This document shows, piece after piece, positions 2,613 through 63,114 of a stretch of DNA of 64,000 nt. Each line of letters opens with the position of its first letter. The stretch's first letter is position 1. This DNA is from Eledone cirrhosa (Eukaryota): contig OZ024746.1 of NCBI GenBank assembly GCA_964016885.1, forward strand, positions 33,108,001 to 33,172,000, given 5' to 3'. Below the pieces are notes generated by a model. That model was not told the origin of the DNA and did not search any database. It saw only the letters and a list, made by a program, of their open reading frames with translations. The translations under genes and the position numbers were made by a program.

Positions 2613-3052
2613 GCAATATATTAACAAATGGAAACTATATTTATAAATCCATATTTATTTCATTATACATATTTCAAGGACACCAAAGCAAATTATCGTG
2701 CGCTTTCATCAGATAAAATATAATATAGATCAGTTTTATAAACAAATATTGACATACCCTTAAAAGAATGCGACCATGTCTGTTGGAAGCTCCCGGAGAC
2801 ATGGTCGCATTCTTTTAAGGGTATGTCAATATTTGTTTATAAAACTGATCTATATTATATTTTATCTGATGAAAGCGCACGATAATTTGCTTTGGTGTCC
2901 TTGAAATATGTATAATGAAATAAATATGGTTTTATAAATATAGTTTCCATTTGTTAATATATTGTATTTTTACTCCAAAAATTTTGTTGAGTGCTTTATA
3001 TCAGTTATAAAAATATTTTCATGTTGTATCCCAACAAATTAAATATAACTTC
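2613..3052 (+). mobile_element. Fold-back hammerhead-bearing element, family A (copy 1)
   Basis: Near-perfect ~170-bp inverted arms (2613-2780 / 2798-2965) plus a ~90-bp one-sided tail; embedded in (TA)n; six other copies in the window. Confidence 0.85.
2858..2922 (+). ncRNA. Type I hammerhead ribozyme (family A)
   Basis: tattttat-CTGATGA-aagcgcac...ggtgtcctt-GAAA-tatgta-TA-atgaaata; stem I is 8 bp; mirror copy on the - strand at ~2656-2720. Confidence 0.8.
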
Positions 3053-3932
3053 TACATATATATATATGATATATATAGGTAAGTATGTATAAGTCTTTAT
3101 ATATGTGTTTTTGTGTCTTTCTATCCTTCGATCACTTCATCCATCTAATTCCAATTTCCATTTGAGCAAAAAACTTTGTTTCTGCTTAATTGTATCATCT
3201 ACAAACTCAACAACATTTGTTAAATTTCCCATAATGAACGCCACGGATATCTCTGTGTTTTGCGCTTGAAATAATTCTGAATTATTGTTTGTTTTATCAT
3301 GCTATTTGTGTTTTATTCAGTAGAATTTAAAATTTTCTAGTCATTCTGTGTTAACCTCTTTTTTCTTTATTTATTTTATATTTTTCTTAGTGCGAGTTTT
3401 CAATTTATTTCAAATCTTCTAGAATAAATTCATTTCAGATATTTACTTGAGTATATATTTTTTACTTTCTCTCTCGTATATTTGCTATTGTATATATTTT
3501 TTTATAATGTTTTATAATTGCATTTATTTTAGACGATATTTTTTGCTATATGTTCACTGCTATGATGTCTTTTAAAAGTCAGTTACCATTAAGATGCCGA
3601 TGGATATGTAAAATGAAAAAGAAAATTATCATCTACATACACATCGTCAATACAAATACACAACAACAATAGCAACAATAACAACATCAGTATAACAATT
3701 ATATAAATACAAACATTACCAAAGTGGTTTAAAAAACGTTTAACGCAATAATATTTAGAGTTGTGATACACAGATGGTTCACCTCACAAGACATTAAATG
3801 ATCGGTATATGAAGTGTCGGATCGCATCATGACACTAGAGCTGCAGGGACTTCTATGCTTAATCTTATAGATAGATATTAATATAGGCGTATATGGACCC
3901 ATAGACAGTATGTTTATGTATAATATACGTGA

Positions 3933-4049
3933 AGGCGCGTGGCTGAGTAGTTAGAAAATTGGATTCGCAATCGTGAGATTGTGAGTTCGATTACCGGACC
4001 GGGCGATGCGTTATGTCCTTGAGCAAGACACTTTATTTCACGTTGCTCC
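3933..4049 (+). mobile_element. tRNA-derived SINE, second family (partial)
   Basis: ggcgcgtggctgagtagttag (A box), gagttcgattacc (B box), then the SINE-body motif gtccttgagcaagacactt. Confidence 0.7.
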
Positions 4050-7000
4050 TTCTACCTAGAGTTGCGACCGATAGATAGAAATATCAATTGGAACGACCAA
4101 CGGAAACATTATTTCCTCGGTCCGATCTGACGAACTCCACCACACTCATTAAGCGAATAAGGTCTGGGATCTTGTTGATTGACTGTCGATACGTACATAC
4201 CTATATATAAGCTTGGTTGTGATTATTTCCCAGCTTCATCACTACGAATACTGTTGTAGCTGTAATATGATTACAGCTTAGAATATCCACAGCGAATGTG
4301 TATGTATGCATATTATACATAAACATAAAGCATATGTGTCCACATATGTGAATATATTTCGAAACACTTTCTTTCAGGTGCTATCACCAATTAAATACTT
4401 ATATCCAATTATCATGAAAATTAGAATATTATCGTGAATTACTGTTGTGAGCATGAATATCATTGTTGTTAGGTTCATATTTGTATATTTATATATTTTA
4501 TATTGTATTGGGAAGTAATAATCTGGATAGTTACAGGTTCCCAGCAAGCTACTTTCTGCTTCATTGTATTTCTGACGATGAGAGTTTGGCAAAAGTGTCT
4601 AACTCGGCATTAAACAAACATATAAAAGGGCTTCATTTGTATAGCACTGGATTCTCAATTTTCTAGCCGACAAACGACATTGATAGAAGATATGCACATT
4701 CAGACACGCACACAAACAAGATGATTGAGTTGCGTTACGTTGAATGCTATCCCTACTATTACGTCATAGGTAACTATAAATAATGACCAGTTTTATCCAG
4801 TGGTGAACCACCAACTTCGATATATATATATATATATATATATATATATATATATATATATATATATATATATATATAAATTACACAATAATCAAAACTA
4901 TGTTCAAATCATTTTATTGCTGACAATCGTTTCTTCCAAACTTTCGTTTGGAATCATTGGAGCACTAGCAAAGTTTGGACATATAATTAACTTCCTATTT
5001 AACTTAATTTATATTCCTGCTCTGTAAAACATCTGATGTATTTCCATTGAGCTATTTTTCTTACTGGTAATAAGGTAGTAATGAGTTACTGACCTTTCCT
5101 GTTTATAGTTGTATATAGTGTATATATAACTATAAATAATATTATTATTATTATATATACATATATAAAGTTATAAACTATAGTTGTTTAGTACGGTGTC
5201 TTGGCGTATTTCATCTATATGCTTTAAAGGTTGTAGATTTCTCTTACACATTTAGATACACTTTCGGGCTATAATAATATGTATGTATATTTGTCTGTCT
5301 CTGTGTGTGTATTTATATATGTGATTGTGAATGAGCGTATATTTCGCTGACGTATATATGGGCTACATATTACGTCTATTGAACAAGAACATTTCACACC
5401 CGTCTATAGGTTTCGACTCATTTTCTGTTTGGCAAGATTTCATTCTACAAGAATTTGATTAATCTTCGGCTATGGTAAAAGAAACTAATCCAAGTGCCTC
5501 GCACTATGTTTGAATTCGAAATCCCAGTGCCATGCTTGTGAAACTCGTGAAAAATACATTTCCTGATACAATTAATGACCAAGTGAGCCTTTAGCTCTTG
5601 AGTTAGTAGTACTTTAACAAAATATAACATTAGGACAGTTAAACTATGTTGAAAATCAACAGAAACGCGGTTCACCGATATAGAGAATGAGTAAGAAGTG
5701 GACATAATATTAGAAGGTAAAAGAGAAATATATCAACTGCCTAAAAATAGAAAGTGTCATAACTAAGAGAGAGAGAGAGAGAGAGAGAGAGAGAGATAGA
5801 GAGAGAGAGAGAGAGAGAGAGAGAGAGAGATAGAGAGAGGGGGAGGGAGAGAGAGAGAGAGAGAGGGGGGATGGAGGGAGAGAAATAAAGCTGTAAATAG
5901 TATAGTGAAAGAAACAGAATTGTGATATATGGTTATATTGGTGAAAAGAGAGTTAGAAAGAAATTCATATCACATTTATGGAGTAAATAGACAGAAAAGT
6001 GAAAAAAGCCATACTTTAGTCACAGATAGAAAGACAGGCATTAGTAGTTTGCACGAAATAGAGAAGTTGAGGGTATAGACGAATGAGTATGAGGAAGTAA
6101 TAGCAAAAACAGTTGACGGTATATAGCTACAGTTAGACAAATATCTAGATAGGAATATATAGGGAAAATGAAGAGAGAAGAGTAGAGATTAGATATATAA
6201 AAAAAAATTGCTACAAATAAATACAGAAAGAGTAAGTAGCAAACAGTCACAATTCTCAAAAATTCTCATAGTTTATTTGATTGATTTCGTATTTATAGAA
6301 GCGCATCGGATATCCGCCGTTCCACCTTCACACTGTTGACCTCAAATCACCGTCAGATTCTCAGTCAATAGTCAGACAAATAACGGGTTCTGCCCCACCA
6401 TTCCAACTTGTCAGGATTTTCACATCATTGATTCATTTTTCAAAAAGATATAAATGGGATAAAAAACAAAATTATATCTTTTAAATAGTGTCTCGTCGTC
6501 CTCTAAAAATACAAAAAGACAAAACCAAAAAAATACGAATTGTTTTATCAATAGACCTACATTGATGCATCAAAACCTATATACATGTATCTACATTCAT
6601 ATCGCACACCAACTATACATACATTAATTCTTACGTGCATACAAACACATAGAGGCACTAACACACATACGTGTAGACACACACACACACTCACACATAC
6701 GCACGCACGCACACACACACACACACACACTCACACATACATTAATTCTTACGTGAATACAAACACACATGGATCACAGACACACATACGTGTAAACACA
6801 CACACACACACATACGCACGCACGCACACACACACACACACACACACACACACACACACACATATATATATATATATATATAGGTGGGTAGCTTTAAGTT
6901 TTTGTGTATTTATTCATAATATTATATTTCACGTTAAGGTTTATATACATACATGCATAAATACATGCTTACCTAGAAACGTGCGTAGATATATATGTAC

Positions 7001-61781: not shown

Positions 61782-61968
61782 TGTTTCTACTTTTTGGCAC
61801 AAGGCCAACAATTACACAGTACATTACTGGTACTTTATTTTATCGACCCCGTAAGGATGAAAGGCAAAGTTAACCTCGGCGGGATTTGAACTCAGATCAT
61901 AAAGGGACATAACTATGGTAGAAAGCATGGCGTCTGACCCTCTACAGATACTACCAATTCACCACCCT
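61782..61968 (-). mobile_element. SINE S1
   Basis: Reverse complement of full-length S1. Confidence 0.88.
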
Positions 61969-62262
61969 TATATATATATAACGAAGGAAATGTGGTAAGG
62001 AGCCAGATGGACCATAACGCACCAAAGTACTCAATACTTAGAGTAGTAGAGTGAGTAATAGGAACAAGTAGGGCCCCGACGGCGGAAATCAAGCCGTTTC
62101 GACGGGTAATTCTGGACTAATTAGCAGTCGAAACGGCTTGAGCTCAGCCGTCGGGGTCCTACTTGTTGCTATATATATATATATATATATAATTTGTTTG
62201 TTAAAATATATATGTATAAAATATATATATATGTATATATGTATATATATATATATATGTCT

Positions 62263-63114
62263 TTTTTTCCGTTTGTCATTTTCGGTGCACCCGGCCGATT
62301 AACCCACTCGATATGAAAATTGGGCTACTCAGCCGTTAATATGCATAAGGTAAGTATATACGTTCAACAATCTGGCAGGAAGGTATACGTTGCTGACGAT
62401 AGCTAATAAGCTTGAAACTAGAACAGCGTTCCTTTGTCAGTGTTGATAAACGAGCAACGATGGTTGCTGGACACTACGGCTTAATACGGGATGTTTGTTT
62501 AGAAACACACCGAGCATTATAATAAATGTTCGGTGAATCCATACGTACATATATATATGTGTGCATGTATGTATATATATATACATACTACTGTACGTCT
62601 GCATACATGTATGTATGTACGTGTACATACTTATATTTAAGTAACAGCCGTACGGGGAATGGAAAATGAAATTTCGTTTCATTTTTTCCGTTTCTCGTTT
62701 TCGGTGCACCCGGCCGATTAACCCACGTGATATGCAAATTGGGCTACTTAGCCGTTAATATGCATAAGGTAAGTATATACGTTCAACAATCTGGCAGGAA
62801 GGTATACGTTGCTGACGATAGCTAATAAGCTTGAAACTAGTACAGCGTTCCTTTGTCAGTGTTGACAAACGAGCAACGATGGTTGCTGGACACTACGGCT
62901 TAATACGGGATGTTTGTTTAGAAACACACCGAGCATTATAATAAATGTTCGGTGAATCCATACGTACATATATATGTGTGCATGTATGTATATATATATA
63001 TATACATACTACTGTACGTCTGTATACATGTAAGTATGCACGTGTACATACTTATATTTAAGTAACAGCCGTACTGTGAGTGGGAAATGAAATTTCGTTT
63101 CATTTTTACCGTTT
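62263..63114 (+). mobile_element. Head-to-tail dimer of a ~419-nt hammerhead-containing monomer (family I, retrozyme-like)
   Basis: Period 419 (cggtgcacccggccg at 62283 and 62702); acgttg-CTGACGA-tagc taataa gctt-GAAA-ctag-TA-cagcgt at 62806-62848; the copy at 62387-62429 has AA instead of TA. Confidence 0.88.

Follow-up and report, generated by a model that had tools for sequence, protein, structure and literature searches.

We found that a 64,000-nt stretch of the Eledone cirrhosa genome (contig OZ024746.1, positions 33,108,001 to 33,172,000; 3.0-Gb assembly), hereafter the window, carries many type I hammerhead ribozyme motifs located in the 3′ ends of Hydra-clade Penelope-like elements (PLEs) and in retrozymes. 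Both kinds of carrier were likely copied into (TA)n by the same enzymes, and loop 3 is likely kept self-complementary because two motifs of a tandem transcript would form helix III together and cut; sequence comparison gives this reading a high probability. The motifs, the open reading frames (ORFs) of the carriers of family A and of the 50.8-kb family, the tandem units of families G, I and 60.4 kb, the insertion footprint and a loop 3 that preserves pairing were observed directly.

The window comprised 33% G+C and was rich in microsatellites. A type I descriptor consisting of the core, stem II, GAAA, at most 12 nt, UH and stem I, with loop 3 left free, detected 16 intact hammerheads at a score of at least 8 in the window and none in the reversed window. 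An earlier note on this DNA had described many unrelated hammerhead families, nearly all with a palindromic loop 3, and had called for a shuffled-sequence control, which gave a mean of 0.15 and a maximum of one motif per window (20 block-wise dinucleotide shuffles) against the 16 real motifs. By hand, 24 motifs were catalogued, plus families at 943 (loop CGATCG) and 44946 (minus strand) that were absent from the earlier list. The resulting 26 full-length motifs represented 12 families, and five half motifs were located at 60109, 51366, 63569, 49356 and 62130; the previous figure of roughly 20 motifs was therefore a slight undercount. The motifs follow the type I plan, in which stems I and II flank a CUGANGA and GAAA-UH core and stem I is left open; this stem covaried in family I. 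The core was intact in 21 of the 26 and broken in five, at 10853 (GAAC), 62393 (A at 16.1), 50734 (CAGATGA), 60411 (CTCATGA) and 44946 (C3-A8).

All loop sequences in the earlier list were recovered at their positions. Loop 3 was a strict palindrome in only 17 of the 26 motifs, and "nearly all" holds when G-U pairs are allowed (24 of 26). TATGTA, listed as a palindrome, is none at the DNA level and pairs only as RNA. The near-palindromic CACTTG at 11.5 kb (11497–11593, plus strand) is a decayed CAATTG: among 19 other copies of this family, 14 had CAATTG, four CATTTG and one CTATTG. The families are indeed many, but family A, 47.9 kb and 51.2 kb formed one cluster, the A superfamily, of which 47.9 kb was a weaker member (flank z 3.1–3.3, long branch on the tree).

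Selection on loop pairing was examined using all loci collected (383 matches in 44 clusters), of which 35 clusters with loops of 4–8 nt were used and nine with shorter or longer loops set aside, each loop sequence being counted once. The innermost pair of an even loop cannot form in a monomer hairpin. This pair was Watson-Crick in 14 of 20 distinct even loops versus 5.6 expected by permutation (p = 1.3 × 10−4). At the DNA level, TATATA turns into TATGTA or TACATA by one and the same mutation, depending on the strand it hits, and only TATGTA pairs in RNA. The half motif of the A superfamily had 81,483 exact matches in the genome (control, 8), and the version with a C-A centre had 678. Among the first 100 half-motif matches listed, we counted by eye 30 TATATA, 26 TATGTA, 36 TGCGCA and eight others, the centre being T-G in 29; the first 100 C-A matches listed included 23 TACATA and 75 TGCACA. 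For these loop variants, which rest on pattern counts, extrapolation gave about 21,000 TATGTA to 156 TACATA, or about 135 to 1, a ratio inflated by amplification. When the loop was left out of the tree, which had 59 rows after thinning of 97 copies, TATGTA required 12 changes, eight of which were forced by well-supported branches, and TACATA occurred in none of the 97 A-superfamily copies. The innermost-pair, G-U versus C-A and tree tests thus bear out the statement that self-complementarity is kept while loop sequences differ, and a loop 3 whose pairing is apparently kept through sequence change fits the published idea of cutting by two motifs.

The same palindromes could instead be inherited or compositional, with a few ancestral loops in a TA-rich genome, shifted by an A-to-G bias (RNA editing or reverse transcriptase error), being amplified without any selection on pairing. 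TATATA is trivial in this DNA, the six clusters in which CAATTG recurs may share an ancestor, and TATGTA is TATATA with an A>G change, of which family I has eight shared examples versus one T>C. Over six families, however, no general sense-strand A>G bias was detected: singleton A>G changes affected 45 of 636 A columns and singleton T>C changes 52 of 731 T columns, with 15 versus 11 shared changes. The GC-rich palindromes TGCGCA, CGCG, CACGTG, CCATGG and CGATCG need compensating T>C changes, and the innermost-pair result holds with each loop sequence counted once. We regard this explanation as very unlikely.

Predicted folding pointed in the same direction as the loop tests. Helix III was computed at +2.4 to +6.0 kcal/mol as a hairpin and gained 1.1 to 10.5 kcal/mol as a duplex; by these energies and by the loop statistics, helix III is of the dimer type, being unstable as a hairpin and self-complementary as a duplex. 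In eight natural tandem pairs, the nested double hammerhead was favoured over two monomers by 5–19 kcal/mol and lay 0.7–6.4 kcal/mol above the minimum.

The coding carriers were identified for two families. Family A had many identical genomic copies; of its 12 long loci, seven (L031–L035, L038, L039) had RT (reverse transcriptase) and GIY-YIG frames on the strand of the hammerhead and upstream of it. The 50.8-kb motif (50726–50854, plus strand, loop CAATTG), with a 94-nt stem II and a 3-bp stem I, was located in the 3′ end of a Hydra-type PLE whose 5′-truncated GIY-YIG endonuclease frame occupies 49980–50399 (plus strand). Elsewhere this motif was positioned about 370–400 nt downstream of RT/GIY-YIG frames, which were near-complete in two loci (L299, L300). 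Its core read CAGATGA in the window copy and CCGATGA in 10 of 13 other listed copies. For both families the order was thus RT, then a C-terminal GIY-YIG, with a same-strand downstream hammerhead. The A and 50.8-kb proteins contained RWR, SDKT, CxCx5C, YRDD, CDLC (CxxC) and CxH and no CCHH; compared by eye, these words are common to published Hydra proteins. The Hydra clade is diagnosed by RW[K/R], DKT, a CxCx5C linker, the absence of CCHH, CxxC and CxH (PMC8557442, in the part consulted), and the proteins here agree, with RWR in place of RWK. By these motifs, families A and 50.8 kb are assigned to the 3′ ends of Hydra-clade PLEs. Pfam gave a weak GIY-YIG match for the window fragment and none for three longer PLE frames, and a PDB sequence search with a PLE frame gave no match. 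An RT piece beside a 51.2-kb copy (L285) was 65% identical to that of A.

Families G, I and 60.4 kb consisted of head-to-tail units of 323 nt, 419–468 nt and about 542 nt, respectively, with one hammerhead per unit and no PLE frame within the units. On their sequence these three are protein-free tandem retrozymes with the layout described in the covered part of PMC7229834. Family G has two plus-strand hammerheads in the window, at 30226–30273 (decayed loop TGTA; copy 30212–30546) and 52945–52992 (TGCA), and the two copies are circular permutations of each other; its 323-nt tandem unit occurs elsewhere in the genome. Family I is represented by two 419-nt units at 62269–63102 (plus strand), the first with a broken hammerhead (62385–62431, A at 16.1) and the second with an intact one (62804–62850, loop CTAG). 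The 60.4-kb hammerhead (60403–60490, plus strand, loop CTAATTAG, UU) belongs to the unit of about 542 nt; its window copy had a G5C change, and the CTGATGA core was present in 18 of 19 other copies. As the full core occurs in those relatives, the view of the 60.4-kb palindrome as a mere terminal-repeat feature was ruled out. A further retrozyme array, with a 310-nt unit and a CGCG loop, was seen at L189 and L190.

Footprints were determined for six families (A, B, 11.5 kb, G, I and 60.4 kb) from loci that were the best matches to a query and not randomly drawn. All six had scattered 5′ ends and two fixed 3′ ends, located relative to the predicted cut at +57/+143 in A, +57–64/+157–161 in B, +52–54/+133–138 in 11.5 kb, +116–125/+162–165 in G, +219/+262 in I and +72/+182–207 in 60.4 kb. 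An inverted arm was present at 14 of 30 loci in A, 11 of 25 in B, 10 of 20 in 11.5 kb, 9 of 25 in I, 17 of 25 in G and 12 of 20 in 60.4 kb, and combined one short end with one tail end in 10 of 14, 10 of 11, 8 of 10, 8 of 9, 14 of 17 and 12 of 12 of these, respectively. The six families therefore have the Penelope-like footprint of 5′ truncation, an inverted arm, a tail at one end and a (TA)n target, and coding elements and retrozymes share it, including the TA target. According to PMC11167929, such a tail is found in no elements other than PLEs and corresponds to the distance separating two RT start sites. This PLE-specific tail and the shared footprint indicate that the mirror copies are insertion products.

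It was also considered whether families G, I and 60.4 kb might be ordinary satellites derived from one pseudo-long terminal repeat (pLTR) and spread by unequal crossover, not copied from RNA. Long arrays do exist (21, 24 and 18 motifs at the family I loci L296, L294 and L295, with up to 24 motifs in 10 kb), and this route is discussed in bioRxiv 10.64898/2026.07.22.740005, as far as its covered passages go. Dispersed copies of these families, however, lie on many chromosomes at 96–99% identity, and their fixed 3′ ends, tails, inverted arms and TA targets match those of the coding elements. A satellite origin therefore appears improbable, and copying by the enzymes of the coding elements is preferred.

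The mirror copies lie on opposite strands, and the read-through RNA of six mirror elements was computed to fold 83–97% paired, with the sense core locked to the antisense copy in a long duplex. Mirror pairs were accordingly rejected as dimer partners in this model, as opposite strands and a long duplex would bury the core. Most copies, including every mirror pair in the window, are likely dead insertion products, and selection would act on few replicating lineages. The earlier proposal of selection for dimeric ribozymes is thus supported in part, namely for a self-complementary loop 3, by three tests; the pattern had already been published, and the mirror copies are no partners.

The abundance of two-armed insertions raises another possibility: the palindrome could act like a retroviral dimer signal, joining two element RNAs for reverse transcription; priming at both DNA ends would then yield two-armed insertions, and cleavage would be secondary. 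Roughly one insertion in two has two arms, with a short end and a tail end, no 5′-end pile-up was observed at the predicted cut site in any of the six families, and the Poseidon enzyme extends both target strands without needing cleavage in vitro (PMC11167929, in the part consulted). This is opposed by the conservation of the catalytic core along with the loop, by a non-palindromic GAAC family that also has a mirror pair (L152), and by Naiads, which give inverted insertions without canonical hammerheads. We give dimerisation for reverse transcription only a small chance, and prefer cutting by two motifs that share helix III.

Under the preferred reading, tandem copies would be transcribed by read-through, and the transcripts may fold as double hammerheads with a joint helix III and be cut at H17. 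The cut units may be ligated to circles, and the RNA would be copied by the Hydra RT, which would start at two sites and extend each end of a (TA)n cut.

Several results weigh against this reading or parts of it. In addition to the missing 5′ pile-up and the shared A>G changes of family I, odd loops gave a weak signal (6 of 9 versus 3.3 expected, p = 0.03; 0.12 with G-U), shared family ancestry makes the loop p values optimistic, and the tree changes include private mutations and possible recombination. Non-palindromic families exist (GAAC, CCTCTGG), as do families with long monomer-type stems III. A ninth same-strand pair (L298), of the 47.9-kb motif, had a fold 48 kcal/mol distant from the double form; it was rejected as a 47.9-kb tandem unit, being two separate insertions. 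In vitro, cleavage was dispensable for insertion of the Poseidon element PAc (PMC11167929, in the part consulted). Coding carriers were also less clear outside A and 50.8 kb: family B had a Hydra-type endonuclease 1.2 kb upstream at one locus only (L287), 51.2 kb had a coding frame at two loci with indirect geometry, and no ORF was traced for 11.5, 47.9 and 1.9 kb, in a search that was not extended to 0.9 kb and H. The Rfam hammerhead models recognised these families poorly, with HH9 scoring 19.7 bits (E 0.008) in family I versus a gathering threshold of 52, no hammerhead row for family G, and no hammerhead among the 150 of 514 whole-window matches listed. In the whole-window output, microRNA models matching hairpins and TA repeats predominated, all below gathering.

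To estimate the genome-wide load, 28 large contigs were sampled at round coordinates, giving 99 stretches of 10 kb (990 kb). The sample contained 99 motifs versus two when reversed, or 100 per Mb (bootstrap 66–146), and 82 per Mb (62–104) when one 19-copy array was counted once. Extrapolated to the 3-Gb genome, this corresponds to about 245,000–300,000 intact type I motifs, in scale with the exact half-motif counts of 81,483 for the A superfamily and 27,010 for family I. The window, with 16 versus 5.3 motifs, has about three times the mean density. With a density of about 100 intact motifs per Mb, the proposal that hammerhead elements form a major repeat class here holds. Scans for the U3-A8 and G3-C8 cores gave 14 versus 13 and three versus three in the reversed sequence, and as these are background they contribute nothing to the estimate. 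A DNA search with the AT-rich 47.9-kb motif returned no candidate, which is no sign of rarity, as the pattern count lists many copies. One endonuclease query had 48,280 candidate places in the genome, and PLE coding remnants made up 1.4% of the sampled DNA.

Hammerheads of PLEs cleave slowly in vitro and were dispensable for insertion in the one reconstituted system. The sequence comparisons support selection on pairing at the centre of loop 3 in the spreading lineages, which suggests that the dimer form likely does something in vivo. A stronger statement, that this is the largest hammerhead population found reported and that its loop counts prove a two-molecule helix III to be the working form in vivo, with G-U and compensated changes accepted and C-A rejected, is one toward which the sequences incline us slightly. 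The genome offers tens of thousands of recent coding-element and retrozyme copies with one common footprint, which makes the proposed link between PLEs and retrozymes testable. If the reading is true, the genome, with young retrozymes bearing the Penelope tail footprint, lends itself to testing dimer-gated cleavage and circular templates as drivers of Penelope-type copying.

The remaining hammerheads in the window are as follows. Family A mirror pairs were located at 2656–2922 (cores 2712 minus and 2866 plus; TATGTA), within a two-armed insertion at 2614–3051; at 12191–12454 (12247 minus, 12398 plus; TATGTA); at 43152–43434 (43209 minus, 43377 plus; TATATA); and at 43796–44195 (43853 minus, 44138 plus; TATATA), with a mismatched stem II base. 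The pair at 43152–43434 is very young: 40 candidate places were scored in the genome, and they gave 42 full-length matches at 100% identity. Single family A hammerheads lie on the minus strand at 42033–42098 (TATATA) and 60968–61032 (TATGTA, 10-bp stem I), as do the A-superfamily members at 47870–47940 (TGCGCA) and 51235–51301 (TATGTA), the latter with a truncated mirror half at 51366. Family B had mirror pairs at 10801–11045 (10853 minus, broken by GAAC; 10993 plus, intact; TATATA) and 52331–52666 (52383 minus, 52614 plus; TATATA). Two motifs upstream of the range of the earlier note had long stems II, of 96 nt at 1747–1877 (minus, CAATTG) and 105 nt at 935–1074 (plus, CGATCG).

Family H comprised a type I hammerhead with a long stem III at 44853–44951 (minus), broken by C3-A8 where relatives have U3-A8, and truncated halves at 49356 (minus) and 62130 (plus); its sites in the window were 44764–44951, 49239–49371, 53266–53312 and 61981–62167. 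With 37 matches in 990 kb, this short PLE-type end is very common. Its 5′ boundary is sharp, nearly all copies starting just upstream of GAAA with the first core half lost; CTGANGA was found within 45 nt in one of 76 copies. In longer copies the core was of the U3-A8 kind, stem III was a near-palindrome of 17 nt and the parts stood in ordinary type I order, which ruled out a scrambled hammerhead.

Two core variants recurred. CCGANGA, with C at core position 4, was the usual state of several families (50734; L044–L056, L038, L066, L086, L112). In several families the first stem II pair was a conserved mismatch and not G10.1-C11.1 (60411, 62812, 11505; L146, L163). The mismatch is U-U in family I, A-A or A-G in 11.5 kb, and C-A both in 60.4 kb and in two diverged relatives, in which the following pairs covary.

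Other repeats were also annotated in the window. At 16146–19796, a near-intact element lacking long terminal repeats (non-LTR) had a frame that a single stop divides into 293 + 922 aa; it matched RVT_1 (E 2e-29) and, as judged by eye, carried a zinc-knuckle and a PD..D-type nuclease motif at its C terminus; related fragments lay at 19967–21180 and 45813–47051. A broken non-LTR element at 32716–35431 (minus) had AP endonuclease, RT and C2H2 fingers, and Tc1/mariner-type DDE transposase fragments were located at 26461–27042, 39200–40227 and 48426–48842. A family of about 190 nt resembling short interspersed elements, with no tRNA detected by ARAGORN, had a dozen or more copies including a four-unit tandem (1521–1714, 14660–14852, 24680–24857, 29525–29664, 32241–32372, 37632–38422, 61782–61968). 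Another short two-armed family beside (TA)n occurred at 47487–47713, 11662–11725, 52078–52182 and 61418–61535, with no hammerhead found in those copies. Positions 56974–59654 contained 2.7 kb of CAT, 31-nt, ACT and CAGCAC tandem arrays.

A palindromic loop 3 and cleavage as dimers were published in 2014 (PMC4209133), along with opposite-strand pairs and the occurrence of many families in one genome, and were restated in PMC6765202; PLEs were proposed as movers of retrozymes (PMC7229834, PMC7761336), a link since backed by homology (Li et al. 2026, bioRxiv 10.64898/2026.07.22.740005). Our comparison covers the parts of these and the following sources that were consulted. The hammerheads of PLE pLTRs (Cervera and de la Peña 2014, PMC4209133) resemble ours in type I topology, many families per genome, palindromic 15.2–16.2 plus loop 3, proposed dimers, the U3-A8 core variant, and opposite-strand pairs 100–700 bp apart in mostly truncated elements. 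They differ in that helix III is 4–8 nt here and absent there, stem II here reaches 105 nt, and the load there, 2,000–9,000 per genome under a different descriptor, is far lower than here. Published loads, likewise from other descriptors, include 126,247 in axolotl, more than 6,000 in coral and about 5,000 in mussel (PMC7229834), and about 9,000 in Xenopus (PMC4209133). The Hydra clade of C-terminal EN+ (endonuclease-containing) PLEs, including Hydra-1_Obim (Craig et al. 2021, PMC8557442), shares the protein motifs, the canonical hammerhead, the (TA)n target, the inverted 5′-truncated arm and the tail; few families are described there, and tails are 80–100 nt here versus 30–40 there. The Poseidon element PAc in vitro (PMC11167929) likewise uses two RT start sites, giving a tail, and extends both target strands, whereas it belongs to another clade and its hammerhead overlaps the ORF start.

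The non-LTR retrozymes of Metazoa (Cervera and de la Peña 2020, PMC7229834; bioRxiv 10.64898/2026.07.22.740005) are built alike: their tandem units span a few hundred bases, encode no protein and carry a single type I hammerhead each, and PLEs have been proposed as both their source and their movers; those of axolotl share a palindromic tetraloop and a U-U base of stem II. Units here reach 542 nt, and the short-end and tail footprint was not found on retrozymes in the covered passages of those papers. Our literature search, beyond whose reach lay Lunse et al. 2017, found no strand-symmetry test and no count this high. The pattern itself is not new; the additions here are a quantitative test of selection for dimers and the scale of the hammerhead load.

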